From an uncultured Azospirillum sp. (GTDB lineage: Bacteria; Pseudomonadota; Alphaproteobacteria; RF32; CAG-239): a stretch of 64,000 nucleotides of DNA. The position numbers were made by a program, and so were the translations under genes. Position 1 is the first letter of the stretch; each line of letters starts with the position of its first letter. Shown here piece after piece: positions 22,156 through 44,958 of this stretch. The notes below the pieces were generated by a model. That model was not told the DNA's origin. It did not search any database and worked only from the letters and a program-made list of their open reading frames with translations. The DNA is taken from NCBI GenBank assembly GCA_900539605.1, contig UQCS01000001.1, positions 17,169 through 81,168 on the forward strand, read 5' to 3'.

Positions 22156-22231
22156 GGGCCCGTAGCTCAGTCGGTAGAGCATTTGACTTTTAATCAAAGG
22201 GTCATGGGTTCGAATCCCGTCGGGCTCACCA
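22156..22231 (+). tRNA. tRNA-Lys (anticodon UUU), CCA encoded
   Basis: Cloverleaf checked by hand: acceptor GGGCCCG/CGGGCTC, D-arm agctcagtcggtagagc, anticodon stem tttga/tcaaa with loop cTTTTaa, T-loop TTCGAAT, discriminator A, then CCA. Confidence 0.9.
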
Positions 22232-22240
22232 ATTAGTACT

Positions 22241-22277
22241 CGGGTTAGATTTTCAGGTCTAACCCGTTGTTTTTTAT
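22241..22277 (+). terminator. Rho-independent terminator of tRNA-Lys
   Basis: cgggttaga...tctaacccg hairpin followed by ttgttttttat. Confidence 0.65.
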
Positions 22278-22284
22278 CTGAAAA

Positions 22285-22971
22285 TTGGAGTTCTAATAAA
22301 TCCATATTATCATTTCCGGCTGTTTGGTTAGAAAGTTTTGCATATCCTTTAATTTCCAATGGTTTCACGAGTTCTAACAGGTTCTGATTGGTTCTCTTAA
22401 CATTTTTCTCTTCAAACAACTCAAATGGGAAGTTTAGTTCATAGGTTAGCTTACCTTCAGTGAGCCATAAGTTCTTGAAAACAAACTTTAATAAGAACCT
22501 TTTAAGTTCTATATTTTGAGAACGGGAGAACAAATATCCAGATTCTGTTGCAATGTCTAAAAGTTCTAAAAGAGTATTATTGAAGCTTTCATCTGCTTTT
22601 TCGTGAGCAAGAATCTTATCTTTTACTCTGTTTACCTTTAACTGAAGCTCGTTTCGTTTGGCATCAAATGTTTCTCTGTCAAGTTCGCCATCAAGCCTTA
22701 AATCAAACAAGTGGTCAAGTTTGTCCTTTAAGTTTTTTTGTTCTTTTTTTAGTTTTACAACAGCATCTTTGCAGTATTTTCGTTCATTGGCTTTGGCTTT
22801 TTTAAGTTCTTCTTTTAATTCTGCCACAATATTATCCGGCAAATGAATGCGGTTGAGGATAGATGCCAAGTCATTTAAGATGTTTTGTTCAGACACATAT
22901 TGTCTTGAACCATCGGCATGATAGCAAAAAATATAGATATATCTGTTTTTCTTAATTTCACAGATGCACAT
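22285..22971 (-). pseudogene. Large serine recombinase, C-terminal (zinc-ribbon plus coiled-coil) fragment lacking the catalytic domain
   Basis: Begins in the Cys cluster (RCG...MCICEI...YIFCYH) with an in-frame stop 6 codons upstream. Coiled-coil LFDLRLDGELDRETFDAKRNEL resembles the LSR motif L.DLY.DG.I....F. The track ORF continues antisense through the terminator and tRNA (GEPDGIRTHDP), which is not coding. Confidence 0.45.
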
Positions 22972-23111
22972 TTGATTGGTGAGACCACAACGAATTTATA
23001 CCGCCTGTATTTGGAGTAAAGAATGGCTGCGATTCTTAATATTAATAAACCTTGACTTTTATAAAATTCCGACTAATCTAAAATAATACCTTGTATTAGT
23101 CGGAGTTTGTT

Positions 23112-24332
23112 ATGTATATTAAAAGAACTATAGAAAAAAGCATTGAGAAAGCCAACAAGTTTTTTTCGGTAGTGTTAGTTACCGGACCGCGTCAGGTCGG
23201 TAAGACAACGGTTTTGCAAAACTGCAAAACCCAGCCTCGGACTTATGTGTCACTAGATACTCTGGAGAACAGAGAACTGGCGAAAAATGATCCGATGTTA
23301 TTTCTGCAGCGTTATCCTGCGCCGGTGCTGATTGACGAGATCCAGTATGCTCCGGAATTGTTTCCTTACATTAAGGCCAGCGTAGATAAAGAAAAAAAGA
23401 GCGGTATGTATTGGCTGACCGGTTCGCAACAGTTTCATCTGATGAAAAACGTCTCAGAAAGTTTAGCCGGACGGGTTGGTATTTTGCAATTGGAAGGTTT
23501 GTCTCAGGACGAAAAAAATGGGCATCCTGATGTTCCTCCCTTTCTGCCGACGGAAGAATACATCAAAACAAAAGTACAGAGTGCGACTGAAACAGATTTG
23601 TTAAAAATTTACGAACTGATTTGGAAAGGTTCATATCCGAAGCTTTATCCGGCAGACAGCGATTATTGGGCAGTCTTTTACGAATCTTATATGCAAACCT
23701 ATATTGAACGCGATATTAAAGCGCTAAGCGCGGTGGGCAATGAGCTTGATTTTGTGAAATTTATGCGAGCGCTGGCGGCCAGAACCGGAGAGATGCTGAA
23801 TTACAGTGAACTGGCAAACGACGTCGGCGTTTCACAACCGACAATAAAGTCCTGGCTTTCCATTTTGCAAACTTCTGGGCTTGTTTATATTCTGCGTCCA
23901 TATTATAACAATGTCGGCAATCGTTTCATCAAAACGCCGAAAGTCTATTTTATGGATACAGGACTTGCCTGTTACCTGACCGGCTGGAAAACGCCGGAAG
24001 TTCTGGAAAGCGGCGCAATGGGCGGCAATATGTTTGAGACCTATGTCGTTTCTGAAATCATCAAAAGCTATTGGCATAACGGCAAGCAACCGGATATCTA
24101 CTATTATCGCGACAAAGACAAACGAGAAATTGACGTGCTGCTCCATGAAAACGGCACGCTGTATCCGGTGGAGATTAAGAAAAAAAGCAACCCGGACAAG
24201 GGAGACATTAAGGCTTTTAATGTTATCGAAGACCTCCGGCAAAAAAGAGGAAGCGGTGCCGTTGTCTGTATGGCACCGACACATCTGCCGCTGACCGATG
24301 ACGTCAATATCATTCCGGTTGGGTATTTATAA
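23112..24332 (+). CDS. AAA ATPase with DUF4143 C-terminal domain (COG1373-like)
   Basis: Walker A VVLVTGPRQVGKTT near the N-terminus; 406 aa architecture typical of the family. Confidence 0.8.
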   Translation: MYIKRTIEKSIEKANKFFSVVLVTGPRQVGKTTVLQNCKTQPRTYVSLDTLENRELAKNDPMLFLQRYPAPVLIDEIQYAPELFPYIKASVDKEKKSGMYWLTGSQQFHLMKNVSESLAGRVGILQLEGLSQDEKNGHPDVPPFLPTEEYIKTKVQSATETDLLKIYELIWKGSYPKLYPADSDYWAVFYESYMQTYIERDIKALSAVGNELDFVKFMRALAARTGEMLNYSELANDVGVSQPTIKSWLSILQTSGLVYILRPYYNNVGNRFIKTPKVYFMDTGLACYLTGWKTPEVLESGAMGGNMFETYVVSEIIKSYWHNGKQPDIYYYRDKDKREIDVLLHENGTLYPVEIKKKSNPDKGDIKAFNVIEDLRQKRGSGAVVCMAPTHLPLTDDVNIIPVGYL

Positions 24333-24348
24333 TCCGCCAGCATAAAAA

Positions 24349-24420
24349 TTTTTGATTAAAACACGCAAAAACTTTGAATTTTTATAAGGTTTTTGATTGA
24401 AATGCACAAAAACTTTTCGA
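24349..24420. repeat. Two about 30-bp direct repeats (TTTTTGATTAAAACACGCAAAAACTTTGAA / TTTTTGATTGAAATGCACAAAAACTTTTCGA)
   Basis: Read directly in the AT-rich intergenic region upstream of the hyp-HhH-primase operon. Confidence 0.5.
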
Positions 24421-24601
24421 CTAATTTTAAATAAGGCCTTAGATTAATCGAATTTGCTTATATAAGCCGTCAATATTTATTAAAAAATAATATATAACAG
24501 CAATAAGTTAAGAAATCTGCAGTGGGGCATCAGCTTTACTACTCCCTACATCGTGGAAAATGGCAGAAACGTTAAGAATGGCATTGTAACTTCTAACAAT
24601 T

Positions 24602-25096
24602 ATGGAGCTTATGATGCAACCGACAAACATTATTTATGAAATAGCCTCAAAGCCGATCGGCGAACTGGCTGAACTCCCCGCAGCAGAGCTGGCAGAGATG
24701 CAAAAGGAAGTGGAAACACTGATCGCGCTGGCGGATAATGTACGCAAGTGGCTGAATGGCGCGTTAATGCTAAAATACAACACCCAGATTAATGAGGAGC
24801 GCACAAAAACTAACCGCCCCTATGGTGAAATCAGCTTCTCCGACAACGAATACATTGTAACGGAAGACCGGCCATTGGTACTGGAATGGCAGAAAGACAA
24901 ACTCAAAGAATATGCCAAACACATTGCGGCCAACGGCGGCAACCCGGAAGACTACATGGATATCGACTATACGATTTCAGAGAAAAAGTATTGTTCGCTC
25001 AGCGATGAAGCCCGCAAGAGCCTGAATACAGCCGGAAACATCCGCCCCGGATGTACGGTCATTACTCTGGTCAAAAGGGAAACTGTCAATGACTGA
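24602..25096 (+). CDS. Hypothetical protein (164 aa), first gene of primase operon
   Basis: ORF with stop overlapping the next start (ATGACTGA); no motif recognised. Confidence 0.5.
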   Translation: MELMMQPTNIIYEIASKPIGELAELPAAELAEMQKEVETLIALADNVRKWLNGALMLKYNTQINEERTKTNRPYGEISFSDNEYIVTEDRPLVLEWQKDKLKEYAKHIAANGGNPEDYMDIDYTISEKKYCSLSDEARKSLNTAGNIRPGCTVITLVKRETVND

Positions 25097-25310
25097 TACC
25101 GAAAACCTGCATGAACGGCCGTTGTCCTCTTTTGCCGAATTAGGCAAAGTTGCTGTTAATCGGTTGGCGGAAAACAAAATTATTACCGTTGCGGATTTAC
25201 TAAAACGCTTAAAACGAGATTTGCTCTATATTCCCGGTTTTGGGCCGAAAAGCATTGATCAGGTTCTGAAACTGCTAAAGAAATATAACCTCAAAATCCG
25301 CGAACGCTAA
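25089..25310 (+). CDS. Small helix-hairpin-helix-like DNA-binding protein (73 aa)
   Basis: LLKRLKRDLLYIPGFGPKSIDQVL resembles an HhH / RNAP-alpha-CTD-like motif; translationally coupled upstream. Confidence 0.45.
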   Translation: MTDTENLHERPLSSFAELGKVAVNRLAENKIITVADLLKRLKRDLLYIPGFGPKSIDQVLKLLKKYNLKIRER

Positions 25311-25333
25311 AGTTTATCGAGGGGGATAAGCCG

Positions 25334-27343
25334 ATGCAATTTTATTATGACAGCGGGCTCTTGAAAAAAAGAGTCCTGCGGGATTTGGAAATCTGGCTGC
25401 CGCAATGGTATCCGAAAGGACGCGGCAGCAAAGGATATTTTGAAATCGGAGATATTGGCGGCACACCCGGCGACAGCTTGAAAATCTGCCTTGCCGGTGC
25501 GAAACGCGGCTTGTGGTATGATTTTGCCACGGCCGAGGGCGGCGACGTTTTCTCTTTATGGGGAATTAACCGTGGTATCTCCGGTTTTGGCAATATTCTC
25601 AAGGACATTGCCGGATATTACGGCATTAACGGCTGTGAAGTCCCCGGAACTAAGGAAAAACGCGGCAGCCCGAACCGGCGGCATGTTTACCTTAACGCCG
25701 ATGGCGATATAAGCTGTTATATCTATCGCTATGAATATACAGACGGCCGCAAAGAGTTTCTGCCGTGGAACGAGGCAACCGGCAAGACCGAATTTCCGTC
25801 ACCGCGGCCGCTTTACCGCCTGCCGCAGCTTATGAAGACCGACAAAATTATTCTGGTTGAGGGCGAAAAATGCGCCGATGTGCTGGTGGCAGCCGGATTT
25901 TCAGCAACGACGCTGATGGGCGGCGCCAATACCCGGATTGAGAAAACCGACATTTCGCCGCTCAAAGGCAAAGAAGTTACTCTTTGGCCGGACAACGACG
26001 TACCGGGACGGAAAGATGCCGACAATGTGGCGGAAGCTTTGCTGAAGCTGCCTGTCTCCTCGCTCAAAATTACCCCGCCGACGCCGGATAAGCCTGCCAA
26101 ATGGGATGTGGCGGATGCGGTGGCGGAGAAATTTGACATTGCCGGATTTCTGGCCAAAGCGGAAATTTATAAACCGCAGGAAAAGACAGAAGCAAACGGA
26201 CGCTTGAAAATCGCCGATTTTACCGGCGCAATGTTCGCCGCTGAGCCACCAGAACTGCAATTTGTGGTCAAAAACACAATTCCGCGCGGCGTGGTCGGGT
26301 TGCTTTCAGCAATGGGAGACACCGGCAAGGGTATGCTGTTATTGGATTTGGCGCTCAAAATCTGTCAGGACAAGACCGGAATGAGCCTGAAGGCCTTTGG
26401 CAACACGGTTACAACAACCGGCAGCGCGGTCATCTTTGCCGGAGAGGACACTGCCGACGAAATTCACCGCCGTATCTACAAATTGATGCCGGGTGGACTG
26501 AACGGACGGATTGACCCGGCGAAACTCCATATTATCCCGCTGCCGAATACCGGCGGGCCGTTTGCAATTGCCCGAAAATGCCGTGGCAGCGACGAATTCT
26601 GCCTGACCGAAGAATTTGAAAGCATCAAAATGCAGCTTAAAGCCATTCCGGACTTGGCGCTGGTGGTGTTTGATCCGCTGGCCTCGTTTGCCGGATTGGA
26701 TCTGAATGCTGATCCGCGGGCGGCAAGCTATATTACCGGCCAGTTGGCCGCGCTGGCGACCGCAACCAATGCCGCTGTTATTGTTGCCCACCATATTCGC
26801 AAAAACGATGGAATCACGACACCACAGGAAGCACGCGATGCTATTCGCGGCACAACCGCAATCGTGGACGGAGTACGGTTTGCGATTGCTTTTTGGGCAA
26901 ATACCGCTGAAGAAAAGAAGATTTTCGCCGAACTGGATCAGGAATATCGCCCGAATGACTGTTTCAAAGGCGCGGTAGTCAAAGCGAACTTCGGAGCCGA
27001 TCGGACGGTACGCAACTACATACGCAGCAGAGCCAGAGCCGTGTTGGAAGAAGTGCCGGTCAAGATTATGCCGAAAACCCTGTCGGCGGAAGAATTTGAC
27101 AAGCTGCTGATTGAAGCCATCGGCGAAGCGGAGAATGCCGGAACGCCGTTTGCGATTTCGGGCATTTCCGGACTTTATGAAAATCGTGAGAAATTGCCGC
27201 TTGAACTGCAGGATGCCTCCCGTGACTTTATCCGCAATACGGCCAAACGGCTGTTGGCTTCCGGACAGATTTGCCGCACCAGCCAGACTGGCAATGGCGA
27301 TAAAAAATGGCTCGGTATTCCCGATGCCGGGAGGTGCGCATGA
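25334..27343 (+). CDS. Bifunctional primase-helicase (Toprim domain + RepA/AAA_25-like RecA-fold ATPase), P4-alpha-like
   Basis: Toprim: ILVEGEKCADVLVAAG and LWPDNDVPGRKDADN. ATPase: GLLSAMGDTGKGMLLLDLA plus LVVFDPLASF (Walker B-like). RBS gaggggga before the ATG. Confidence 0.75.
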   Translation: MQFYYDSGLLKKRVLRDLEIWLPQWYPKGRGSKGYFEIGDIGGTPGDSLKICLAGAKRGLWYDFATAEGGDVFSLWGINRGISGFGNILKDIAGYYGINGCEVPGTKEKRGSPNRRHVYLNADGDISCYIYRYEYTDGRKEFLPWNEATGKTEFPSPRPLYRLPQLMKTDKIILVEGEKCADVLVAAGFSATTLMGGANTRIEKTDISPLKGKEVTLWPDNDVPGRKDADNVAEALLKLPVSSLKITPPTPDKPAKWDVADAVAEKFDIAGFLAKAEIYKPQEKTEANGRLKIADFTGAMFAAEPPELQFVVKNTIPRGVVGLLSAMGDTGKGMLLLDLALKICQDKTGMSLKAFGNTVTTTGSAVIFAGEDTADEIHRRIYKLMPGGLNGRIDPAKLHIIPLPNTGGPFAIARKCRGSDEFCLTEEFESIKMQLKAIPDLALVVFDPLASFAGLDLNADPRAASYITGQLAALATATNAAVIVAHHIRKNDGITTPQEARDAIRGTTAIVDGVRFAIAFWANTAEEKKIFAELDQEYRPNDCFKGAVVKANFGADRTVRNYIRSRARAVLEEVPVKIMPKTLSAEEFDKLLIEAIGEAENAGTPFAISGISGLYENREKLPLELQDASRDFIRNTAKRLLASGQICRTSQTGNGDKKWLGIPDAGRCA

Positions 27344-27565
27344 CGGCGCCGTTACCATACTTTCCTAAATGTAAAAAGCCGGAATACGCCGTCAGGAATC
27401 CGCAATGCCGAAAAACTGCGGGTTATAGCGGAATGACTGCTAAGACACAGGTGGGCTTCCGTCATGAGCGTGACGGATTCCGGTGTTTAGAAATTGGTTC
27501 GGGAATCGCTTTTAACTTATTGAAAAACAATCATTACCATTTGGCGAAATTCACAACAGCGTGGT

Positions 27566-27597
27566 CGGTATATATATTTTTTAAAATATATATACCG
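27566..27597. promoter_or_regulatory. 32-bp perfect palindrome CGGTATATATATTTT-TT-AAAATATATATACCG
   Basis: 15-bp arms with a 2-bp spacer, verified base by base; lies between the primase operon and the next gene. Confidence 0.6.
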
Positions 27598-27650
27598 GCT
27601 GCCGTGACCATCGTCAGGAATGGAAAACAGGAACAACAAAGGAAATCACC

Positions 27651-28088
27651 ATGGCAGAATTAATTTGGACACGGGAGATGGTCAAAGACTGGTTTGAGAG
27701 CGCCGTCTATACCCTCAAGAAAATGCCGAGAGAAAAGGTTCAAGGTTATAAAACCTATTGGCCCGGCATCCGGTATACCGAGATGGAATTGTTACAGATG
27801 GATAGGAAACCCATTCGTCTGGTAGCCAACAGTCTGGATATTGCCCGTTTGGACGCAGTGCTGGAATGGATCTATCTGGTGGATAATGTAGACCAGCGGT
27901 GGATTATCTGGCAGCGGGCCAAACGTTATCCCTGGCGGCTGATCTGCAAAAGATACGGCAAAACCAGTCGAACGCTGATTGACTGGCACAATGCCGGGAT
28001 TGATGTCATCGTCAAGGTACTGAATAATCCGAAAAGTGATTTCTTTGCCAAGAACCGCGTTCTTTTAAGCAAATATTTGTCTTATTAA
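27651..28088 (+). CDS. Hypothetical protein with HTH-like segment (145 aa)
   Basis: Segment ICKRYGKTSRTLIDWHNAGIDVIV looks like an HTH; otherwise unrecognised. Confidence 0.45.
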   Translation: MAELIWTREMVKDWFESAVYTLKKMPREKVQGYKTYWPGIRYTEMELLQMDRKPIRLVANSLDIARLDAVLEWIYLVDNVDQRWIIWQRAKRYPWRLICKRYGKTSRTLIDWHNAGIDVIVKVLNNPKSDFFAKNRVLLSKYLSY

Positions 28089-28093
28089 CTATA

Positions 28094-28157
28094 TGTACAT
28101 ATTATCCTTGACATTGTACAAAATGTACATTATAATGTACACAGAGTACATTATAAT
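28094..28157 (+). promoter_or_regulatory. Consensus sigma70 promoter (TTGACA-17-TATAAT) overlapped by four TGTACA palindromic hexamers
   Basis: TTGACA 28108-28113, TATAAT 28131-28136; TGTACA at 28094, 28115, 28124, 28137; second TATAAT at 28152; RBS aaagg; ATG at 28171. Confidence 0.55.
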
Positions 28158-28170
28158 AAAGGAAAAATAA

Positions 28171-29193
28171 ATGGAAAGAATCACATTTTGGAATAATAAA
28201 GGTGGAACAGGAAAAACCAGCTTAGCTTTTCAAACAATTTGCCAATACGCACATGAAAATCCATCTGAAAAAATTTTGGTTATTGATGTTTGTCCTCAAG
28301 CAAATCTTTCAGAATTACTCCTTGGAGGATTACACCAAGGTGGAAGTAATATTTTATTACAAAGACAAGGGGCAACTCCTCGTGCAACCATTGGCGGCTA
28401 TTTTCAGCTTCGTCTTCCTTCTCCATATACGCCACCTTCATTTACAGCTCAAGACTTTTTAACTCAACCATATAAATACAATAAAAATATACCAGAAAAT
28501 ATAGACTTATTGTGTGGTGATCCAATGTTGGAATTGCAATCAAATGCTATTTCTACATTAGCTAATAACCAAATCCCCGGAACAAATACATGGATTGCAA
28601 TTATCGATTGGATTAATGATTTTTTAAAAAAAATTGAAAATGAATATGACATTGTATATTTCGACCTAAATCCTAGCTTTTCAATCTATACCCAAATTGC
28701 TTTGGCTGCTACATCTAAATTGCTCCTTCCTGTGATGGCGGATGATTCATCAAGACGTGCAATTCAGAATGCATTTTCTTTAATTTATGGGCTAAAGTTA
28801 CCATCCGAAATATACACAAAATATGCTTTTGCCCAAAAACTTAAAGATGAGGGGCGACAATTGCCTAAAGTACATATGATTTTGAAAAATCGACTAACCC
28901 AATACATGGGGCCAGCATCCGCTTTTACAACAGTTCTAAGTGCTATAGAGCAAGATATTACTGATCTTCTAAAGGTTCATCCTCAGTTGTTTACTTTTTC
29001 ATCTATTAAACAAGGAATTGTTGAAATTCGTGATTTTGGAACAACTGGCGTAGTATCTGCGGCTAGAGGATGCCCCTTCTATACGCTTCCCTATGGAAGA
29101 TTAGATTTGCTTGGACAACGGGTTCAAGTCAAAGAAGATTATAGAATAGACTGCGAGCATAATATTCGAGAAATAACTTCAAAAATTTTTTAA
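28171..29193 (+). CDS. ParA/MinD-like ATPase (340 aa) with C-terminal extension, orphan (no parB)
   Basis: Deviant Walker A NNKGGTGKTS at residues 8-17; Walker A' VIDVCPQAN; Walker B IVYFDLNPS. Region about 35% GC. Confidence 0.7.
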   Translation: MERITFWNNKGGTGKTSLAFQTICQYAHENPSEKILVIDVCPQANLSELLLGGLHQGGSNILLQRQGATPRATIGGYFQLRLPSPYTPPSFTAQDFLTQPYKYNKNIPENIDLLCGDPMLELQSNAISTLANNQIPGTNTWIAIIDWINDFLKKIENEYDIVYFDLNPSFSIYTQIALAATSKLLLPVMADDSSRRAIQNAFSLIYGLKLPSEIYTKYAFAQKLKDEGRQLPKVHMILKNRLTQYMGPASAFTTVLSAIEQDITDLLKVHPQLFTFSSIKQGIVEIRDFGTTGVVSAARGCPFYTLPYGRLDLLGQRVQVKEDYRIDCEHNIREITSKIF

Positions 29194-29469
29194 CAATTAA
29201 TCAGCCTAAAAATTTATTTTGGGCTGATTTTTTTATAAAAATCTGCCTTTTCAAGTGAAGTGTACTTCAAAGCCTTATTCTACAAGGGATTACGGCGGAA
29301 CGGACAGGCGGAAATTTTTCAGATGGAAGGCTGCAAAGGCCCGGATTTCCTTGAATCGTACTTCACATATTCTTTTACTTCACATTTTCGCAAAAATGGT
29401 TTATCAAACCAGGTATAATTGGGGCGTTGTATAGATACCGCTCCGGCGAAAAAGGAAAATCCCCCTCAT

Positions 29470-30027
29470 ATGATCATCACGGAACTCCAAATAAATGACG
29501 CTGCGGAACGGCAGCTGCATCTGATTGCTTCGCGGCAAATTCCCTTTGCCGTGGCGGCTTCTCTGACGGCAGTGGCAAAGATTGCCCAAGCCGAAGTGCG
29601 TGATCATATCAACGAAACCTTTACCATTCGCCGGAAAAGTGGTGGGTTTGCCAGCAGCATTGCCGTTAAACCGGCAACAAAGCAAAGCCAGACCGCAGAA
29701 GTTTATACAATGGCCCGACTTGCAGCTTTACAGCAGATCGGTGGGTTGCGGCAGCCACAGGGAAGCAACTTGGCAATCCCTTCCTATCAGAATTTGAGCG
29801 AAGTTAAGGTGCGGCGGTCAGTACGCAGTATTGCCGATGCCTTTGAAATGAAACTCCAAGATGGTCAGACGGCTTTAGTTCGGCGCAAAGGAAAAGGCTT
29901 GCGGTTTCTTTTTTTCCTCAGAAAACAGGCCGATGTGCCGAAACGCTTCAAAATGATTGAAATTGTTTTGGAAACAGCCAAACGGGAGTTTGGGCGGACA
30001 TTGGAAGCCAAAATGCGTGAACTATAA
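29470..30027 (+). CDS. Hypothetical protein (phage-like), alternative start 29419
   Basis: RBS aaagga before ATG 29470; no confident family. Confidence 0.4.
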   Translation: MIITELQINDAAERQLHLIASRQIPFAVAASLTAVAKIAQAEVRDHINETFTIRRKSGGFASSIAVKPATKQSQTAEVYTMARLAALQQIGGLRQPQGSNLAIPSYQNLSEVKVRRSVRSIADAFEMKLQDGQTALVRRKGKGLRFLFFLRKQADVPKRFKMIEIVLETAKREFGRTLEAKMREL

Positions 30028-30690
30028 GAACTCTTTCAGATCCGGATGCTGACGGACTTTTTCCTGAATTTGACGGAGCGATTGGGGATTAAGCCTGCGC
30101 ATAACAGTTTTGCGGTGGCTATGATTGTAAACGTTTCCGGTTCGGATATCTAAAACCTGATTGCCGTGATGTCCATGCAGGCGAAACGGCCACGAATCAT
30201 CTTCAGCGCTCAAGTGAAAACGCCAACGATAGGTATCAATCGTTGCTGTCCCCTCATAAAGGTCAGCATCTTCCGGATTGGGATCTTCAACGGACAAAAT
30301 AAAGAAAAATTCATAAATACGGCATAGAGAATCGAAAAAAGAATCTACCGCAGCAACATTATTGAACTCTCCGCTCAGACAGAGGGCATAATCGCAGGTG
30401 CGGATTTGGACATTAACTTCAAGAAAAGCTACTTGCAATGCGGAATGGTATTTTTTATCAATCGAAATGTTTATTTGCGTTTGATACTTTTTCCGCTCTG
30501 GGCAAAAATGAAGCCTTCCACATAATCTGCCGTTGAAAAACAGGTATTCGTTGATGACTTTTATGAGCGCATTGTCGCCATAGGTTTTGATTTTATGGTA
30601 TTTGGCAGAATTATTTGACATCGCTGTCCAAGCTAAAAAACAGGGTATCTTCCTGTGATATCTTGATATTTTGTGTCTGGGTATTGACAA
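30022..30690 (-). CDS. Hypothetical protein (222 aa)
   Basis: ORF only; convergent with the previous gene; no motif recognised. Confidence 0.4.
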   Translation of the reverse strand: MSIPRHKISRYHRKIPCFLAWTAMSNNSAKYHKIKTYGDNALIKVINEYLFFNGRLCGRLHFCPERKKYQTQINISIDKKYHSALQVAFLEVNVQIRTCDYALCLSGEFNNVAAVDSFFDSLCRIYEFFFILSVEDPNPEDADLYEGTATIDTYRWRFHLSAEDDSWPFRLHGHHGNQVLDIRTGNVYNHSHRKTVMRRLNPQSLRQIQEKVRQHPDLKEFL

Positions 30691-31117
30691 TGATCGGCTG
30701 CGACGGATCTATATCCAAAGTCGTGCCATTTGACCTGTTAGGCTGTACCGATTTGAAATCTATTGAAAGAATTGGCGTGCTGCGGCCATCTGCATCTGAA
30801 ATATAGGCGTTGCGCCCGATAAACCTAATTGAATACTGCTTCATTCGTGCCTCCGTCGCGTATTAAAAAATAAAAATCGGGAATGGGCAAGAAAAACCGG
30901 ACGGTTACTAACTTTAATATCGTTCAATAAAGCATGTTTCAGATATTGTCAGGAAGTAAGGCCGTCCCAAAGTGTTGTTTGGCTGTTCATTTAGATTTGA
31001 GCCGAGAGCCGAAAAAACACATTTTTTAATTTATTTCGTTGAAAAAGGTACTGTTGGAAGATTTTTCGACGCGGGTAACGCGAACCCCGCCGCGTCGCTA
31101 CCGACAGACTAAAAAAA

Positions 31118-31288: not shown

Positions 31289-31315
31289 TCTTTTTTATGT
31301 AAGGAAGCAAGAATT

Positions 31316-37951: not shown

Positions 37952-38667
37952 TGGAGTTACCTGTAATTAATATTTATTGTGACGAATCTTGTCATTTAGA
38001 AAATGATAAGCACACTTCGATGGTTCTTGGAGGTGTATCTTGTCCGATCAGCAAGGTGAGAGATATTTCCGTAAGAATAAAGGAACTCAAAGAAAAATAT
38101 GGAATGTCTAAATATCGAGAAATTAAATGGGTTAAGGTTTCTCAGGGAAAAGCAGATTTCTATCATGAACTCATTGACATTTTTTTGACTAACGAATGTT
38201 TACGCTTTCGTGCAGTAAAAGTTAAAGATAAAAGCTGTCTCTCTCATGCTAAATTCCATCAAACCCATAATGAATGGTATTATAAAATGTACTACACCAT
38301 GCTTCGGCAGGTTATTCAGCCATATAAAAATTATAATATTTATCTGGATATTAAAGATACAGTTGGCGGAGAGCGGGTTGCAAAATTAAAAGAATTTTTA
38401 AACAATTTGAATCCAAATAAAAATACTAGTGAAATACTTAAAATCCAACAAATTCGTTCGTTTGAATCTGAAATTATTCAACTAGCAGATATATTAATTG
38501 GGGCTGTGGGATATCAGGATAGACTGCCTGAAATTAAAACAGCACCTAATGCAACGAAATTAAGTTTATGTAAAAAAATTGAAGAAGGTTTACAAATTAA
38601 TTTTAACAGGAAAACTCCTTATCTTAACTCAAAATTTAATTTATTGATTTGGGAAGGACAACAATGA
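37948..38667 (+). CDS. DUF3800-family protein
   Basis: N-terminal VINIYCDESCH matches the DUF3800 YxDES signature. ATG 37948 overlaps the Res stop TGA (ATGA coupling). Confidence 0.6.
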   Translation: MMELPVINIYCDESCHLENDKHTSMVLGGVSCPISKVRDISVRIKELKEKYGMSKYREIKWVKVSQGKADFYHELIDIFLTNECLRFRAVKVKDKSCLSHAKFHQTHNEWYYKMYYTMLRQVIQPYKNYNIYLDIKDTVGGERVAKLKEFLNNLNPNKNTSEILKIQQIRSFESEIIQLADILIGAVGYQDRLPEIKTAPNATKLSLCKKIEEGLQINFNRKTPYLNSKFNLLIWEGQQ

Positions 38668-39152
38668 GTCTGGTTCTCCCCGATTTAATAGATATTGACA
38701 TCAATAAATATACAGAAGAATTGGAAAATCTGTATAGAATTTATTTGGATGAATTATATATACCACAAATCGAAGTTTTAGGAAAACCCATAACCTGCCG
38801 TCAAAATCCTGAAGACGCTGGAAAACATGAGTGTTTTTGGCATTTGATAACCGAAGGGGATCCCGAGAGAACACCCGATTTTAATCGCATCAGGAGATTA
38901 CATTGGTGTGCTTATGTTCTTTTACACTATACTGACAGAGAAATAGTATGTTGGGAGAAAGAATGTACTACTCCTAAAGGTAAACAACGCAGAATTTTCT
39001 TTTGGCTTCCCAACGAAAAATATTATGTTATTCTTGGTGAAAATAGAGCAAAAACATCTTTCGAGTTAATCACAGCGTATTGTGTCAGCTATTACGGTAC
39101 ATTAAGATGCATTCAGAGAGATATGTCCTCTTGTCCTGATCCTAGGTTTTAA
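38664..39152 (+). CDS. Hypothetical Cys/His-rich protein (163 aa), coupled to the DUF3800 gene
   Basis: ATG 38664 overlaps the DUF3800 stop (ATGA); RBS ggaagg; residues KHECFWH, HWCAYVLLHY, CWEKEC suggest metal binding. Confidence 0.5.
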   Translation: MSLVLPDLIDIDINKYTEELENLYRIYLDELYIPQIEVLGKPITCRQNPEDAGKHECFWHLITEGDPERTPDFNRIRRLHWCAYVLLHYTDREIVCWEKECTTPKGKQRRIFFWLPNEKYYVILGENRAKTSFELITAYCVSYYGTLRCIQRDMSSCPDPRF

Positions 39153-39270
39153 AAAGCGGAGACCGCTCAAGAGAACGGTCCCGAAAATCCTTCTACAACA
39201 TGGTAGATGATCAATAACTGTATATTACATTTAGTATTATTCTTGTCAATATGTAATATTGCTATATCTT

Positions 39271-39315
39271 CTTAGTGACTGATGAATTTGAAATTCAAAT
39301 TCATCAGTCACTAAG
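39271..39315. repeat. 45-bp perfect palindrome (22-bp arms, 1-bp centre) CTTAGTGACTGATGAATTTGAA-A-TTCAAATTCATCAGTCACTAAG
   Basis: Verified base by base; no adjacent U-tract on either strand. Confidence 0.85.
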
Positions 39316-39555
39316 AAATTTCTACTATTACTGTGTAGTAATTTAACACATTTATTTTAATTTGTCAATACTACCGCGCTATTTTTCAACAATTTTTAAA
39401 TAAAAAAGAGGTAATGCAGTTGAAACCACCAGTAACGGTTTCTCAGCTGAACCTCTGTATGAGAGTAAAATACAGAAGCGATAAAATGTCAAGAACAGAT
39501 AAAAATAAAATAGAGAGATACTAATAAAATTCATTGTAATTGTTCTTTAGTTTTT

Positions 39556-39584
39556 TTGACTTTTTAGATTTCCTCCGATATAGT
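39556..39584 (+). promoter_or_regulatory. Putative sigma70 promoter of mod (TTGACT-17-TATAGT)
   Basis: Hexamers at 39556-39561 and 39579-39584; RBS gaggaaa; ATG 39622. Confidence 0.45.
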
Positions 39585-39621
39585 GCGTAAAAAGTAAAAT
39601 ATCCTAGTGTTGAGGAAATAA

Positions 39622-41265
39622 ATGTCAGATAAATTGCAAAAATTAGAGCTGGTATGGCCGGGAAAGAATGAGCATGTTGACGTCGAACCGCGGATTTTAA
39701 TTGAGGATGCGGAAAAATCATACTCGGCGAATTCTAAGATTCAGGAAAAAATAAACCGGCAGCTTTTTGAGCAAGAACCGGAAATTGCTCCGACTTTTGA
39801 CAACATGCTTATCCACGGTGATAATTTATTGGCATTAAAAGCTCTGGAAGCCAAGTATTCAGGCCAAATTAAATGTATTTATATAGATCCGCCATATAAT
39901 ACAGGTAATGCTTTTGAACATTATGATGATGGATATGAGCATTCTATTTGGCTTTCGTTAATGCGAGAGCGATTGGAAATTTTGAAAAATCTATTGGCCG
40001 ATGATGGAAGTATTTGGATATCATTAGATGATAATGAGCAAGCCTATTGCAAGGTGCTTTGTGATGAAATATTTGGTAGGAAAAACTTTGTCTGTAATGT
40101 TATTTGGCAAAAAAAATACTCTCCGGCTAATGATGCAAAATGGTTATCTGACAATCACGATTTTGTTATTGTTTATGCGAAAAATAAAATGATATGGCGC
40201 CCCAATTTGCTACCGAGAACGAATGAACAAAATAAATATTATAAGTACGATGATAATGATGGACGAGGTAAGTGGCGTTCTGATAATGTATTAGTAAAAA
40301 CATTTTCGAAAACAGGAGTTTTTGCTATTGTTAATCCCAACACAGGGGTTGAGTATTATCCTCCAGAAGGAAGTTGTTATAGATTTAATGCAGAAACAGC
40401 AAAAAGAATGTTACAAGAAAATCGTTTTTATTTTGGGAAAGATGGGAAAGGCGCCCCTCAATTGAAAAGATATTTATCGGAAGTTAAACAGGGTATGACT
40501 CCTTTAACTATTTGGTCATACGAAGAAGTAGGGCATAATCAAGATGCAAAATTGGAAGTTAAACAATTTAACCCTACTGATATTTTTGCCACTCCCAAAC
40601 CAGAAAGGCTCCTTTACCGTATTTTAACTTTAGCCACTAAACCCGGCGATTTAGTCCTTGATAGTTTTTTAGGCTCAGGTACAACAGCTGCGGTCGCTCA
40701 TAAAATGGGGCGGCGCTGGATTGGGATTGAGATGGGAGACCACATTTATTCCCACTGTTTGCCGCGACTGAAGAAAGTTATTGATTGTGAAGATGCCGGT
40801 GGTATCACGAAATCAGTTAAATGGCAGGGCGGCGGCGGTTTTAAATTCTATGAACTTGGCTCTACCCTGATTGTAACGGATAAACATGGGCGGCAGGTTA
40901 TTTCGGACAAATATAATCCGGAAATGTTGGCTGAAGCTATGTGCAAGCTGATGGGATACAAGTACGCTCCAGATAAGGAAACTTACTGGAAACAAGGTTA
41001 TTCCAGCGAAAAGAGTTTTATTTTCACAACAACGATGAATGTTGAGGAACAGTTGCTGGCAGAGATGTCTCAAGCCCTAGGGGACAGCAACCTGCTGATC
41101 TGCTGCGGCGCTTTCACCGGTAACAAAACGGCTTATGACAATATTACCATTAAGAAGATCCCTCAGGCAATTCTTAAGAAATGCCAATGGGGCTCTGCCG
41201 GTTATCCGTTACCAATTCGGGAAGATTTTTCTGATGAAGATTTTGAATTTGAGGATGAAGAATAG
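39622..41265 (+). CDS. Type III R-M Mod subunit (N6-adenine methyltransferase, beta class)
   Basis: N-terminal LELVWPGK; IHGDNLLALKAL; motif IV CIYIDPPYNTG; downstream FLGSGTT (AdoMet binding). Confidence 0.85.
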   Translation: MSDKLQKLELVWPGKNEHVDVEPRILIEDAEKSYSANSKIQEKINRQLFEQEPEIAPTFDNMLIHGDNLLALKALEAKYSGQIKCIYIDPPYNTGNAFEHYDDGYEHSIWLSLMRERLEILKNLLADDGSIWISLDDNEQAYCKVLCDEIFGRKNFVCNVIWQKKYSPANDAKWLSDNHDFVIVYAKNKMIWRPNLLPRTNEQNKYYKYDDNDGRGKWRSDNVLVKTFSKTGVFAIVNPNTGVEYYPPEGSCYRFNAETAKRMLQENRFYFGKDGKGAPQLKRYLSEVKQGMTPLTIWSYEEVGHNQDAKLEVKQFNPTDIFATPKPERLLYRILTLATKPGDLVLDSFLGSGTTAAVAHKMGRRWIGIEMGDHIYSHCLPRLKKVIDCEDAGGITKSVKWQGGGGFKFYELGSTLIVTDKHGRQVISDKYNPEMLAEAMCKLMGYKYAPDKETYWKQGYSSEKSFIFTTTMNVEEQLLAEMSQALGDSNLLICCGAFTGNKTAYDNITIKKIPQAILKKCQWGSAGYPLPIREDFSDEDFEFEDEE

Positions 41266-41267: not shown

Positions 41268-41648
41268 ATGAAAATAGACTATGATTTCTTGAAACAGATT
41301 TTAACTGTAATGATTGATAATGAAAGTCATTTTATTCGTACAGATCAATTAACAGATAAACTTGATCTTGACATTTGCAATAAATTACTTTGGGATAAGT
41401 TTTGGGGGCATATGTTTATTTTAAATGATAATCTTTGTTTGGATTGTGATGATGAAAGTTTGGGAACTTTTCGAGAACAGGATGGCTGTATTTCCTATCG
41501 TTCTCAAACTTTTCGCCTTACAGCTCAAGGATATCAATTTTTAGATATTCTGAAAAATGATACAATCTTCCGTAAAATCAAAGATTTTAGCGTTTCAACC
41601 GCTATCGAGGTTGGAAAAGCTGCTTTGATAAATTGGATAGTAAAATAA
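41268..41648 (+). CDS. Hypothetical protein (126 aa), coupled to mod
   Basis: ATG 3 nt after the mod stop; RBS gagga; possibly YjcQ/DUF2513-like (weak). Confidence 0.45.
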   Translation: MKIDYDFLKQILTVMIDNESHFIRTDQLTDKLDLDICNKLLWDKFWGHMFILNDNLCLDCDDESLGTFREQDGCISYRSQTFRLTAQGYQFLDILKNDTIFRKIKDFSVSTAIEVGKAALINWIVK

Positions 41649-41657
41649 ATGGTCATC

Positions 41658-44528
41658 TTATAAAAAAGTGGTAAATGTACAATCAAAAACAAGCTCGGAA
41701 GAATAATCAAACTTAAGAGCCTTCTTTTTCTTTTCTAAAAGGCGCTTATAGGCAAGATTTATTGCTTTTTCCTTGTCCAGGGATGCAAAGTTATCCATTT
41801 CGTATTTTTCCTGTAAATGGGCAATTTTCTTACGGAGGGCCAGTTTCCTGCTGATTATTTTTTCTGTAAGCAACTTTTTATGCGCGGCATCAATTTTATT
41901 TTTTATCTTGGCTGCTCCTAAACGGATGCCATTAATTTCATCATATTGCCAACGGTTCAACTTCTCAGTTTCCTCCCTTAAAAGTTCTGCCGTTGCTTTT
42001 CTATCGTTATCTGCAGCGGATTTTATATCATTATCATGCAAAGACACCAACAAATTGGCAAAACCATAATCACGGATTGGCTCCACAGCTACAATATTGT
42101 CAAAAAATGTTTCTGGAGAAATATCCAGCTTTTCTCCTTCATGGCTGATAAAAGTACAAATAAGGCGTTGGTTGATATCCGGAGCCGTTTGCCTATACAG
42201 ACTGACATTGACACGCCCCTGTAATCCGGATTTTAGCTTGGGTGTCTTTATAATCAGATGCGCCGGTGGTGTTTTAAGCTCTAGTGCAGTGGTCAGAACC
42301 CTTTTCCCGAATGCAGATTGAGGGTTATATGCTGCAGGTTGGCGGCGAAGCGCTTTTTTATCCTTGTAATACATATAAGTCGTATCGCGCTTGGTATAAT
42401 CCAAACGATGGGAAAAATTGACGGCAAAATTAATCTCCGAATGAACATCTGGAAAAACCTGAGCCTCAAATTGTCCGAAAGTTTTTGTATCCTCATTGAT
42501 AAAAAAGCCCGGTTCAATAATTTTGAGAATATTTTTTGTCAGATTCCAGAAAACCTGCTTGTCCCGGCTCAAAAAGGTCTCAACACGAGTCTGAGTTACA
42601 TGGAGCTTTTCCTGCAACGTCGGATTCAAATTTTCCAAAACAAGCTGTTTTGCCTGTTCAATACCTTGTTCCCTCTTAAAATTCAACATTTCCTGTAAAG
42701 CGTCAAAGGCTTTGGCTATTTCTTCTTCTGTCCGGCATTCATCTAAGATTTTCGCGACGGCTCGTTCAAAGTCGACACCGTCAAACATGGAGCCGAGAAT
42801 TTCGTCGCTGGCTCCGAAAACGCCATCAAACAGCTTAAATTTATATTGCAGGATATCGTATAAACGAATATCAGCCAAATTTTTCTTATTAATGAAGTTA
42901 ATGATGACAACATCCTGTTTCTGCCCATAGCGGTGGACACGTCCGATCCGCTGTTCTATTCGCTGCGGGTTCCACGGCAGATCATAATTGATCAAAAGAG
43001 AGCAGAACTGTAAGTTTAATCCTTCCGCTGCCGCTTCCGTTGCAATCATAATTTCTGCATCATCCCGAAAGTGATTGACAATTGCCTGCCGCATGTCTGT
43101 CGCCTTAGAAACTGTTACTTTTCCGGGATACCGGCGGCAATATTCCTTGTATATCCGATTATGCAGCGGAGAGTTATTATTGCCGCTAAAAGTGATAATT
43201 TTATCCTGAAAGCCGTTTTCCGTCAGAAAATCAAACAAATACTCCAAAGTACGATAACTTTCGGTAAAAATGATGACTTTCCGCTGTTTTTTCTTTGCAA
43301 AACCTTCCTCTATGGCTGAAATCAGCTTCAGAGTTTTGCCATCAACCTTAATACTGTCGGCAAGAGCAATCAAATTGTCTAATAACTTTCCTTCCGGATC
43401 TATTTCCATCGGATTAAGTATCTTCCCGCGGCCTTTATAAAGCCTGTTGTAATTCTTAATTTCCGGGTCATATTGTGATGTCATGTCGTAAATGTTTATT
43501 AAATCGGTCACATCTTCGCCGTTGTCCATAAGCCCCTGAAGCATGGAAACCTTATTTCTTATTCCCTCTAACGTACCTTTGACGGCAGCAGTAGAGGAAC
43601 TCATGAGCTTACGAATCATCATGATAACTAAATTACGGGCATGACTTTGTATCCCAAATTTCGCATGAAGTTTAATATACAATGAAACCTGATTATATAA
43701 TTCCTCTTCTTTCGGCGTAGGTTCAAAAGCTACGGTCATGGCTTCGCGGTTCGTATAACGAATATACTCCAGAACATCTTTGCGCAGTGTGCGATGCAGA
43801 ACTGATTGTAACCGCTGGCGAAGTTCTTGATGTTTTCGTTCCGTATATAAATAGGTATCAATAAAAGAATCCTGATTGCCCAAGATATTCGCATCAATGA
43901 GAGACACTAGTGAGAAAATATCCATCAGGGAATTTTGAATCGGCGTTGCCGTTAACAGCAGTTTCTTCGTATTTACAAAGGTTTTATAGATAATATTAGC
44001 TGTTTTATTATCCCCTTTATAAAAATTCCGAAGTTTATGTGCTTCATCAAAAACCACTAAATCCCACGGATACGGGCTAAAATCCTTAGTTCCTTGTACA
44101 ACGAAATTATAAGAAACTATAGTTACACCTTCAAAGTCAAATGGACTGATACCTTTTTTGCGGTGGGGCTGATGCCAGATACTACTGTCAACGATTTGGG
44201 CCGGAAGATTAAATTTCTCCTCCAGTTCGTTTTTCCATTGTGTTCGTAAAGAAGCGGGCGCAATTACCAGCAGATGTTTTTTGCTGCGGGAAAAATACTC
44301 CGACAGGATAATTCCGGCTTCAATGGTTTTACCAAGACCTACCTCGTCAGCGAGAATGGCCCCTTGAGAAACAGGAGATTTCAAAGCAAACAAGGCGGCA
44401 TCAATCTGATGCGGATTAAGATCAATATTGGACGTTACCAAAGAACCGGATAATTTATTAATATCCGTATTATTGGCCGATGTTTGAACCTCTAAGGCCC
44501 AATATTTGCTTTGATAGTCTGAATTCAT
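41658..44528 (-). CDS. SNF2-family helicase (956 aa) with about 350-aa uncharacterised C-terminal domain
   Basis: Motif I LADEVGLGKTIEAG; motif II VVFDEAHKLRN; helicase-C QRIGRVHRYGQ; convergent with mod. Confidence 0.85.
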   Translation of the reverse strand: MNSDYQSKYWALEVQTSANNTDINKLSGSLVTSNIDLNPHQIDAALFALKSPVSQGAILADEVGLGKTIEAGIILSEYFSRSKKHLLVIAPASLRTQWKNELEEKFNLPAQIVDSSIWHQPHRKKGISPFDFEGVTIVSYNFVVQGTKDFSPYPWDLVVFDEAHKLRNFYKGDNKTANIIYKTFVNTKKLLLTATPIQNSLMDIFSLVSLIDANILGNQDSFIDTYLYTERKHQELRQRLQSVLHRTLRKDVLEYIRYTNREAMTVAFEPTPKEEELYNQVSLYIKLHAKFGIQSHARNLVIMMIRKLMSSSTAAVKGTLEGIRNKVSMLQGLMDNGEDVTDLINIYDMTSQYDPEIKNYNRLYKGRGKILNPMEIDPEGKLLDNLIALADSIKVDGKTLKLISAIEEGFAKKKQRKVIIFTESYRTLEYLFDFLTENGFQDKIITFSGNNNSPLHNRIYKEYCRRYPGKVTVSKATDMRQAIVNHFRDDAEIMIATEAAAEGLNLQFCSLLINYDLPWNPQRIEQRIGRVHRYGQKQDVVIINFINKKNLADIRLYDILQYKFKLFDGVFGASDEILGSMFDGVDFERAVAKILDECRTEEEIAKAFDALQEMLNFKREQGIEQAKQLVLENLNPTLQEKLHVTQTRVETFLSRDKQVFWNLTKNILKIIEPGFFINEDTKTFGQFEAQVFPDVHSEINFAVNFSHRLDYTKRDTTYMYYKDKKALRRQPAAYNPQSAFGKRVLTTALELKTPPAHLIIKTPKLKSGLQGRVNVSLYRQTAPDINQRLICTFISHEGEKLDISPETFFDNIVAVEPIRDYGFANLLVSLHDNDIKSAADNDRKATAELLREETEKLNRWQYDEINGIRLGAAKIKNKIDAAHKKLLTEKIISRKLALRKKIAHLQEKYEMDNFASLDKEKAINLAYKRLLEKKKKALKFDYSSELVFDCTFTTFL

Positions 44529-44658
44529 AGCGAAATGTTATCCAATAATATTTTAAGATTCAATGAAAAGCTTGAGGTAAAATGCGATATTTGGTTGAAA
44601 CACACATAAGAAAAAGTTAGCATCATATAAAATAACAGAAATAAAATAGGGATAAATA

Positions 44659-44958
44659 ATGATAAATTATATTGATGACTTGCCTTTTCCTAACCATTTA
44701 ATTCCATCAAAATTGAAAGAATTATTATCTCCTATTGATGCTTCTCCATTGAATAATATAGAGGTAGCCTGCTCCTATGAGATTACTTCTCCGTCTGTGC
44801 TGTCCCGTGAAATACGTTATGATATGACAACGGTTACTGTTCCTCTGGATAAAATAAATAATATGCCTCTATTGTATTTGAATCACGGCGTCGTTTCCAC
44901 AGGTCCTGATAATGATAGCGAAGGAATGTGTGATAGCCGTGTTTTTCATGCGCTATAT
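44659..44958 (+). CDS. Hypothetical AT-rich ORF at island edge (no stop before host DNA)
   Basis: ORF only; composition changes abruptly at about 44960. Confidence 0.25.

Follow-up and report, generated by a model that had tools for sequence, protein, structure and literature searches.

The DNA analysed here, called the window throughout, is a stretch of 64,000 nucleotides (nt) from an uncultured Azospirillum sp. (GenBank assembly GCA_900539605.1, contig UQCS01000001.1, positions 17,169 to 81,168), and our subject is the region directly downstream of its tRNA-Lys(UUU) gene. Positions 22234-44956 are a true lineage-specific, horizontally acquired genomic island at this tRNA, with exact edges. 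We consider it quite probable that this is a composite, decayed island occupying attB of a large serine recombinase (LSR) element, with attB overlapping the 3' end of tRNA-Lys(UUU). A first-pass annotation, made from the sequence without database searches, had listed the genes of the island, and Pfam, PADLOC and PHROGs matches bear that list out. They identify a recombinase fragment, a DUF4143 ATPase, a primase/AAA_25 helicase, a ParA-like ATPase, phage parts and a defence cassette, with three DNA methyltransferases among them (Dcm, ParB_N-N6/N4 and Type III Mod). The locus is laid out as follows.

19931-21583, minus strand: conserved host gene for a protein of 550 amino acids (aa) without a Pfam match, bracketing the hotspot on the left
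22156-22231, plus strand: host gene for tRNA-Lys(UUU), tRNA-Lys(ttt) in DNA letters, found by ARAGORN and Rfam; the sole tRNA gene in the window
22226-22233, plus strand: core TCACCAAT of the putative attL, made of the last 6 nt of tRNA-Lys and the next 2 nt; left island edge, right behind which the homology of relatives stops
22234-22995, minus strand: segment A, P' arm and 3' remnant of an LSR gene
22234 to about 22283: P' arm with the tRNA terminator hairpin, the start of segment A
22996-34806 (11.8 kb): segment B, early/replication/methylase arm of a WO-like tailed prophage
34807-35008, minus strand: segment X, a scrap of about 200 bp encoding GGxGxD (RTX-type) repeats, with a weak HemolysinCabind match
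35009 to about 44938 (9.9 kb): segment C, fragment of an LSR/ParB mobile element
44939-44956 (about 18 nt): unplaced stretch between the end of segment C and the host gene stop codon, matched to no source
44959-46389, minus strand: convergent host gene for a 476-aa protein without a Pfam match, whose stop codon is the right island edge; it lies next to all three alleles of the site

Relatives were found with the 550-aa tRNA-neighbour protein as the query in a scan of one genome per species, which returned two uncultured alphaproteobacterial metagenome-assembled genomes from the mouse gut, L001 and L002. By blastn both are collinear with window positions 9934-22233 at 93–94% nucleotide identity, and collinearity resumes at 44957/44958 with 88–92% identity. 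Four further contigs (L004-L007) give the same pattern, and the 476-aa host gene taken by itself is 88–90% identical to its counterparts. The window, L001 and L002 are base-identical up to ...GGGCTCACCAAT (...CACCAAT), ending at 22233, two bases beyond the CCA end of the tRNA, and they part at the base after that. Homology among the three genomes returns, base-exact, on the right at the stop codon of the 476-aa gene. Between these edges the relatives hold 1.2 kb or 4.2 kb of unrelated DNA, and a blastn comparison with L001, L002 and L004-L007 found no DNA common to the island and their fillings. The tRNA-Lys gene with an identical left flank is present in all alleles, which differ in what fills the slot.

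Window: 22.7 kb, the island
L002: 1.16 kb, a Mac/hexapeptide acetyltransferase gene
L001: 4.2 kb, genes for a Tag glycosylase, a TfoX_N protein and an 829–921-aa protein

The alignment upholds an island between core genes 3' of tRNA-Lys and fixes its edges to the base (22233 and 44957/8), with a candidate empty site in L002 and L005. A gene order shared with close relatives had been named as what would make the region ancestral; the relatives share nothing between the edges. The position directly 3' of a tRNA and the absence from related genomes agree with an Islander-type definition of a genomic island.

The host organism is common, because its 104-aa flank gene is held by 687 index blocks in an exact-protein lookup. 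Among 23 contigs typed, 4 carry the island, 14 the Tag/TfoX filling and 5 the acetyltransferase. The island contigs are 99.5–100% identical to the window, while the flanks of the non-island contigs are about 92–94% identical, and the island is therefore restricted to one lineage.

The island consists of four truncated scraps joined at breakpoints inside genes (22995/6, 34806, 35009 and about 44938), and is not a single element plus later cargo. The scraps come from at least three distinct mobile elements, each stripped of its recombinase gene. The guanine plus cytosine (GC) content averages 41.6% in the island and 47.4–47.9% in the host flanks. By part it is 33.5% in segment A, 47.2% and 45.1% in the two pieces of segment B (B1 and B2), 33.9% in the ParA cassette between them and 38.3% in segment C. 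Inside C it is 42% in the Res gene and 32% in the PDC-M04 genes, and inside B it reaches 50–54% at 25–27 kb. The value of 35–38% GC originally given for the island is right in so far as A, the ParA cassette and C are AT-rich; it fits neither the island mean nor segment B, which at 45–47% is host-like.

Segment A is all that is left of an LSR gene. Its open reading frame (ORF) has 76–77% aa identity to residues 285-547 of P0055, an intact 565-aa LSR with Resolvase and Recombinase Pfam domains, and the segment has 78% nucleotide identity to loci L033/L034. The C-terminal zinc-ribbon/coiled-coil part is homologous to the LSR family in the alignment to P0055, and a match to the PHROG 95 integrase covers profile positions 395-583. 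Codons 1 to about 284, and with them the catalytic and recombinase domains, are missing, and what is left is the 3' 45% of the gene. The earlier reading of a recombinase without its catalytic domain was correct, since only residues ~285-547 of the 565 remain; the window ORF has neither the Resolvase nor the Recombinase domain, both of which are present in P0055 and L028. A profile search with the fragment gave 1015 matches at E ≤ 1e-10, many of them proteins of about 500 aa. The fragment was also considered as the phage's own recombinase, and this was rejected on comparison with the 580-aa LSR of the phage, to which it is unrelated. Belonging neither to the phage nor to the defence cassette, it marks the scar left by a separate LSR element that targets tRNAs.

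The window and L033 are identical over about 55 nt after the CCA end although their tRNAs differ, and the last 26 nt of the window tRNA-Lys and the L033 tRNA-Glu differ at two positions only. From these comparisons the left edge is an LSR attL, in which the tRNA 3' end and the predicted core TCACCAAT are followed by a P' arm supplying the tRNA terminator and by the 3' part of the LSR gene. A 321-aa ORF (22006-22995, minus strand) reads antisense across tRNA-Lys, as would be explained by an att core that lies inside the ORF in this LSR family. An inverted core copy, ATTGGTGA, occurs at 22975-22982 (plus strand), 13 nt from the A|B breakpoint and within the LSR coding motif CGLTNQ; it is probably a coincidence.

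Homologues of the LSR fragment are mostly short (130–405 aa), and many of their ORFs continue into the antisense strand of a tRNA, giving a ...GIRTH... motif. The LSR 3' end adjoins tRNA-Lys(UUU) in L014 and L028, tRNA-Gln(UUG) in L027 and L031, and tRNA-Glu(CUC) in L033/L034, where the LSR is intact. The 8-mer TCACCAAT is found at attL in L014, L028 and L033, at an attP-like site in L015/L016, and as an attR copy in L033. L014, an integrated copy, and L015/L016, which are without a tRNA, have near-identical LSRs, and the point at which their sequences switch lies directly after ATTGGTGA (read in the tRNA sense, TCACCAAT). In L033 the second copy of TCACCAAT lies at 1093-1100, in an intergenic gap at the expected element end. 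It is followed by a stretch homologous to the L015 arm (56% aa identity, E 2e-7) and preceded by a hairpin, 20 nt of which, CAAGCGGCAGGTATAAAAAC, are identical to the DNA right after tRNA-Lys in L002/L005. Given these 20 matching nt in the B' arm of the L033 attR, the L002/L005 allele would be an unoccupied attB. The positions of CAAGCGGCAGGTATAAAAAC are 1072-1091 in L033 (attR of the tRNA-Glu element), 9331-9350 in L002 and 9742-9761 in L005, so two different tRNA loci, in different genomes, share a B' arm.

The intact L033 element lies between two TCACCAAT copies, with a detached LSR tail exon 10.5 kb off, at attR. Read-through of the core into this tail (...NFFLAHREEILAMKEQVQ..LLAA*) is seen in L015/L016 and five other homologues; the tail occurs in 6 of 54 homologues, and at least 18 read into the tRNA antisense strand, as integrated copies do. 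Sequence comparison places the att core inside the LSR ORF in L015 (5350-5552), L016, L033 (1093-1224 and 11560-11622) and L014 (2150-2338). We infer that the integration site of this LSR family would be a TCACCAAT core that overlaps the 3' end of the tRNA. Its attP appears to lie within the LSR gene, such that on integration the final ~43 codons would be split off and end up at the opposite end of the element. A long tRNA-derived repeat is not to be expected for this family, because it makes only an 8-bp repeat.

With rather more doubt than confidence, we put forward that these proteins form an undescribed bacterial LSR clade. Its attB would consist of tRNA 3' ends (Lys-UUU, Glu-CUC, Gln-UUG) plus a downstream hairpin, with an 8-bp core, and its attP would lie in its own ORF. 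The last ~43 residues (...NFFLAHREEILAMKEQVQ..LLAA) would be exchanged for tRNA-antisense-encoded ones and the tail exon sent to the far end, acting as a directionality switch, and its members would be recurrent carriers of defence genes. If this is true, the clade has a built-in switch for the direction of integration and excision and is the bacterial serine-recombinase counterpart of the archaeal 'suicidal' integrases, and its decaying elements would leave C-terminal LSR stubs beside tRNAs. The intP/intX gene of Myxococcus phage Mx8 is a bacterial tyrosine-recombinase precedent for an att site inside a recombinase gene. A shallow literature check found no description of serine integrases that target tRNA genes or span their own attP, and such reports may exist. 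According to one review, recombinases disrupting the gene that encodes them are known from archaea only (PMC8371274). Two more distant LSRs of about 500 aa (P0070, P0094) also end in tRNA-antisense-like tails, e.g. ...GDRDSNPG..., so a much larger clade of LSRs may target tRNA 3' ends. As a by-product, the comparison supplies a candidate attB/attP pair and its core for a family of serine integrases targeting tRNA genes, a potential integration tool.

L028 (10560-16366) comes from a distant relative that shares the flank of nuoN, the 550-aa gene and the 104-aa gene, and its LSR is called as two ORFs (338 and 223 aa). Between tRNA-Lys and the LSR element it carries a 5.6-kb tyrosine-integrase/Fic island bounded by a 47-nt tRNA-Lys repeat. 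Because L028 has two elements in tandem there, tRNA-Lys is a multi-element hotspot in this bacterial group.

Segment B comprises two prophage fragments separated by the ParA cassette.

22996-28090, plus strand: segment B1, first prophage fragment, 89% blastn identity to IMG/VR loci L008-L010
From 22996, plus strand: left end of B1, the 8 final codons of a phage gene for a 233-aa protein
23112-24332, plus strand: DUF4143/AAA_14 ATPase, PADLOC match to PDC-S01
24602-25096, plus strand: 164-aa gene (B1)
25089-25310, plus strand: 73-aa gene (B1)
25334-27343, plus strand: primase-AAA_25 helicase by Pfam (B1)
27340-27663, plus strand: 107-aa gene (B1)
27651-28088, plus strand: DUF6362 gene (B1)
28091-29230, plus strand: low-GC ParA cassette with a ParA-like ATPase at 28171-29193 (AAA_31/CbiA Pfam matches)
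29231-34806, plus strand: segment B2, second prophage fragment, 88–91% blastn identity to L009/L010
29419-30027, plus strand: tail-like 185–202-aa gene (B2)
30022-30690, minus strand: 199–222-aa gene (B2)
31172-32407, plus strand: Dcm by Pfam and PHROGs (B2)
32391-33722, plus strand: ParB_N-N6/N4 methyltransferase by Pfam and PHROGs (B2)
33747-34559, plus strand: PAPS-reductase-like gene (B2)
34585-34806, plus strand: first ~74 codons of terS, at the right break of B2

The primase-helicase used as a query retrieved three IMG/VR viral contigs of 45–63 kb that are 88–91% identical to 22996-28090 and 29231-34806. Past the point where the window stops, these relatives continue with TerS, TerL, portal, protease, major head (capsid) and baseplate genes, and about 5 kb to the left of the first homologous base of the window they encode the 580-aa LSR with a DUF2924 partner. 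The DUF4143 ATPase is a phage gene, because copies 96% identical to it occur in the phage relatives. The nearest deposited relatives of the primase-helicase are proteins of Wolbachia phage WO, 40% identical over 99% of the length. Segment B is a defective remnant, the early arm of a full-size WO-like temperate tailed phage of this bacterial group, with one cut 5' of the lysogeny module and LSR and a second in terS. Of the packaging and virion genes that mark a tailed prophage, only the 74 terS codons remain in the window. The name 'P4-like' first given to the primase-helicase, and the older phage-like integrative element to which it was assigned, give way to this early arm of a tailed prophage with a WO-like primase. 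The ParA-like gene was swapped into one moron slot of the phage, a slot that in the phage relatives holds a 599-aa DUF4365 gene (L010) or other DNA. No match to the ParA cassette or to segment X was found in any fetched locus; segment X was compared with both B-type and C-type loci.

Segment C carries the defence cassette.

35009-35089, plus strand: codons 67-92 of p92, the remnant of a 92-aa gene
35180-37951, plus strand: Type III Res (PADLOC REase_III 1.6e-167; Pfam ResIII)
37933-38667, plus strand: PDC-M04A/DUF3800 (PADLOC 5.7e-84)
38649-39152, plus strand: PDC-M04B (PADLOC 1.5e-28), an ORF overlapping PDC-M04A
39269-39317: perfect palindrome of 24+24 nt with a 1-nt spacer, in the 470-bp gap upstream of mod
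39622-41265, plus strand: Type III Mod (PADLOC MTase_III 5e-181; Pfam N6_N4_Mtase)
41268-41648, plus strand: DUF2513 gene by Pfam
41658-44528, minus strand: DrmD-like SNF2 helicase (PADLOC DrmD match 2e-184)
44659 to about 44938, plus strand: codons 1 to ~93 of a 582-aa gene, with homology decaying at residue ~93

Mod and Res occur together, co-oriented and 1.65 kb apart, as expected of a Type III restriction-modification (R-M) system, here predicted from gene content; the Res C-terminus gives a TnsA-like nuclease match slightly below the cutoff. PDC-M04 A (DUF3800) and B are adjacent and constitute a candidate system by family match. The label DISARM (defence island system associated with restriction-modification) was rejected, as the island has the DrmD-like SNF2 protein only and no match to DUF1998 (DrmB) or DrmA was found among its ORFs.

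A metagenome scan with the SNF2 protein found 12 human-gut loci (L035-L046) that carry the same cassette at 92–97.5% nucleotide identity. Cassette C moves horizontally, because the host flanks of these loci are unrelated or only 72–77% identical to the window while the cassette itself is conserved to that extent. In all 12 loci Res is followed by the 92-aa gene, a 512-aa LSR with Resolvase and Recombinase domains (LSR512) and a ParB_N/RepB protein, and in L035, L044 and L046 a complete 577–582-aa gene precedes the SNF2 gene. Segment C was cut inside genes at both ends and its LSR lost, because p92 is kept only from codon 67 to 92 and the 582-aa gene only from codon 1 to ~93.

The comparison brought to light a widely shared LSR/ParB defence element whose res-mod slot takes alternative DUF3800 cassettes. 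The res-mod gap (window 37952-39602) is a variable slot, holding PDC-M04A/B in the window and most copies and about 1.9 kb of other DNA in L037, L038 (15665-17600) and L040; in L038 it encodes a different DUF3800 protein (292 aa) and a 237-aa partner. The 470-bp gap with the palindrome is conserved in other cassette copies, and the palindrome could be an operator or a terminator. The central part of Mod (40107-40585) is poorly conserved or unaligned among cassette copies otherwise 90–97% identical, which is consistent with swapping of the target-recognition domain.

The window holds none of the partners that site-specific excision would need. No recombinase homologue other than the LSR fragment, and no tyrosine integrase, was found in the 64 kb. 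No repeat of at least 14 nt of the interval 22100-22340 occurs anywhere in the window, in line with the first-pass report that no direct repeat of the tRNA 3' end is visible at the right edge, and a search for terminal direct or inverted repeats across 21900-45300 gave chance-level matches only. The TCACCAAT core occurs once, with no second copy in the same orientation in the window. An inverted copy of the P' arm, sought in the window and in L033 with 3–7 mismatches allowed, gave nothing convincing; tblastn of the LSR tail against the window returned noise only, and no P arm was found there either. Of the Islander-type features, both an intact integrase and a distal attR repeat are absent, and no intact integrase with an att pair that might set other boundaries was found elsewhere in the window.

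The right edge is not an att site and coincides with the host gene stop codon. The break at about 44960 and an ORF running antisense into the host gene, both described before, are real; the ORF (44659-45192) is not open-ended as had been thought, having a stop at 45192, and it joins the ~93 initial codons of the 582-aa gene to antisense host sequence. A missing tRNA repeat is not evidence of decay as such, because the LSR family makes an 8-bp repeat only. What does speak for decay is that the window lacks the distal core, the P arm and the detached tail exon alike, from which it also follows that the distal end of the element behind segment A was deleted. Since the window has neither a recombinase nor an att partner, the island is predicted to be immobilised and unable to excise by site-specific recombination. 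The earlier description of an immobilised, layered mosaic stands, with no recombinase, no att pair and four pieces. The surviving ORFs are full length and 93–99% identical to their mobile counterparts, which is consistent with recent decay or with selection on the cargo. Those left intact (R-M, SNF2, PDC-M04, the PDC-S01 ATPase and the methyltransferases) probably serve this one lineage as fixed cargo for phage defence and DNA modification.

These results lead us to propose the following history. An element of the 565-aa LSR type would have integrated first, at an empty site like that of L002, composed of tRNA-Lys, core, B' hairpin, acetyltransferase gene and 476-aa gene. The WO-like prophage and the LSR512/ParB defence element would have arrived later, nested or in tandem. 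Illegitimate deletions may then have removed the three recombinase genes, the lysogeny and virion modules of the phage, attR, the B' arm and the acetyltransferase gene, and would have halted where the tRNA or the 476-aa gene would be damaged. Several points weigh against this reconstruction. We infer both the order of arrival and the sequence of integration followed by deletion; no intermediate was found, and all island contigs are 99.5–100% identical. Nesting, tandem insertion and a single illegitimate capture would all suit the pieces found, since telling them apart would need the attB of the phage LSR and that of LSR512. A comparison of few loci is the basis on which the LSR crossover core is deduced, and the defence genes are assumed to be active because their ORFs are intact and match families. 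The whole patchwork could also have formed in another genome and entered by homologous recombination via the flanks.

Import of such a pre-assembled patchwork as a block, through the conserved flanks, would correspond to the turnover mode of defence hotspots, and it suits a locus with a clonal island allele, with edges that both coincide exactly with conserved gene ends, and with a slot taken by three unrelated fillings. The flanks, however, differ from those of non-island relatives by a uniform ~6–8% on both sides with no visible recombination tract, and the left edge, as a putative LSR attL at the family core, argues that at least the first step was site-specific. We regard block import as improbable, and note that it is compatible with the composite decayed island as far as the later steps are concerned. 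Chimeric joins in a metagenome-type assembly, with junctions that fall between unrelated mobile elements, might produce a similar picture, yet we give mis-assembly practically no credence. Identical A|B, B|X|C and C|host junctions are repeated in at least five samples or assemblies (ERZ19692907, ERZ914376, ERZ1755087, ERZ914205 and ERZ914058), including the 99.5% identical variant strain of ERZ1755087, and because they recur in independent assemblies the island is no assembly chimera.

In the first-pass annotation, AT-rich defence cargo was seen as a later insertion into a single older integrative element at tRNA-Lys, phage-like and of P4 type. A primase-helicase operon near the tRNA and a recombinase fragment speak for it, as do the AT-rich blocks alternating with GC-richer ones, and one real internal replacement exists, the ParA cassette within the phage piece. 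We nevertheless consider it very unlikely, since the phage has an LSR of its own to which the recombinase fragment is not related, the phage relatives are tailed phages of 45–63 kb with virion genes and not satellites, and neither a tyrosine integrase nor a tRNA-derived repeat is present. The defence cassette lies beyond the terS breakpoint and is part of a separate LSR512/ParB element that occurs in many contexts; it is not inserted into the phage element but joined end to end with the phage piece, and is itself a fragment of a third element cut at both ends. Even less probable is an ancestral 22.7-kb region lost by the relatives. All contigs of the same lineage do carry the island unchanged; but segment C is 97.5% identical to the copy in L046, whose housekeeping flank is only 73–77% identical, segment B is about 90% identical to free viral contigs, and L002/L005 keep an intact core and a B' arm matching the L033 attR, which marks an unoccupied site rather than a deletion scar.

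Compared with known systems, the composite decayed island resembles the tRNA-linked defence islands (Islander/TIGER-type, with P4-like integrase) in its position 3' of a tRNA, its absence from relatives, its mosaic R-M/defence cargo and a composition off that of the host. It differs from them in having an LSR scar instead of a tyrosine integrase, an 8-bp core instead of a tRNA repeat of 15–60 nt, and neither integrase nor distal att. Composite and recombinase-less 'pseudo' cassettes are common in the biology of the staphylococcal cassette chromosome (SCC). SCC/SCCmec and the Enterococcus cassette chromosome (ECC) share with the island that a serine recombinase inserts DNA at a conserved gene's 3' end and that successive elements gather at one site (PMC6222049). 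They differ in their target (rlmH, compared with a tRNA 3' end here) and enzyme (CcrAB, compared with a single LSR), and the cargo here is of phage and defence type in a gut alphaproteobacterium. By analogy, SCC/ECC cassette sites are the closest mechanistic analogue of the island. WO-type phages also use an LSR. Like defective ('grounded', cryptic) prophages (PMC6379469), segment B lacks integrase and virion genes and has intact accessory, replication and methylase ORFs. Unlike them, or phage WO, it has only ~12 kb of 45–63 kb left, with foreign DNA fused to both ends, and is apparently not at the phage's own att site. It does not answer to a P4-like satellite either, as there is no tyrosine integrase and the intact relatives of B encode their own virion genes.

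For the defence genes, the Res and Mod models match Type III R-M, although res and mod are split here by a nested two-gene cassette. The SNF2 protein matches DrmD of DISARM, whereas DrmA and DrmB are lacking, and the DUF3800 pair and the DUF4143 ATPase match PDC-M04 and PDC-S01, which are candidate systems in PADLOC. Archaeal integrases of the Sulfolobus spindle-shaped virus (SSV) or 'suicidal' type (PMC8371274) have the att core inside the recombinase ORF, where it also appears to lie in the relatives of the window's LSR. The enzyme here, in contrast, is a serine and not a tyrosine recombinase of bacterial hosts, only a short C-terminal tail is detached and not the catalytic half, and the window keeps the attL half only.

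The object is an ordinary kind of degraded composite defence island. It offers a base-resolved case in which a tRNA hotspot gathers mobile elements, loses their recombinases and keeps the defence cargo. An alphaproteobacterium of the human gut, abundant and uncultured, is left with a fixed defence island specific to its lineage, an outcome of annotation value but unsurprising.

Elsewhere in the window, a 6S RNA (SsrS) gene lies at 59337-59491 on the plus strand (Rfam, 62 bits). At the right end the GC content drops to 36–38%, which is accounted for by the gene of an 807-aa autotransporter-like surface protein (60857-63280, minus strand); we take it for a gene of low GC content and not for another island.

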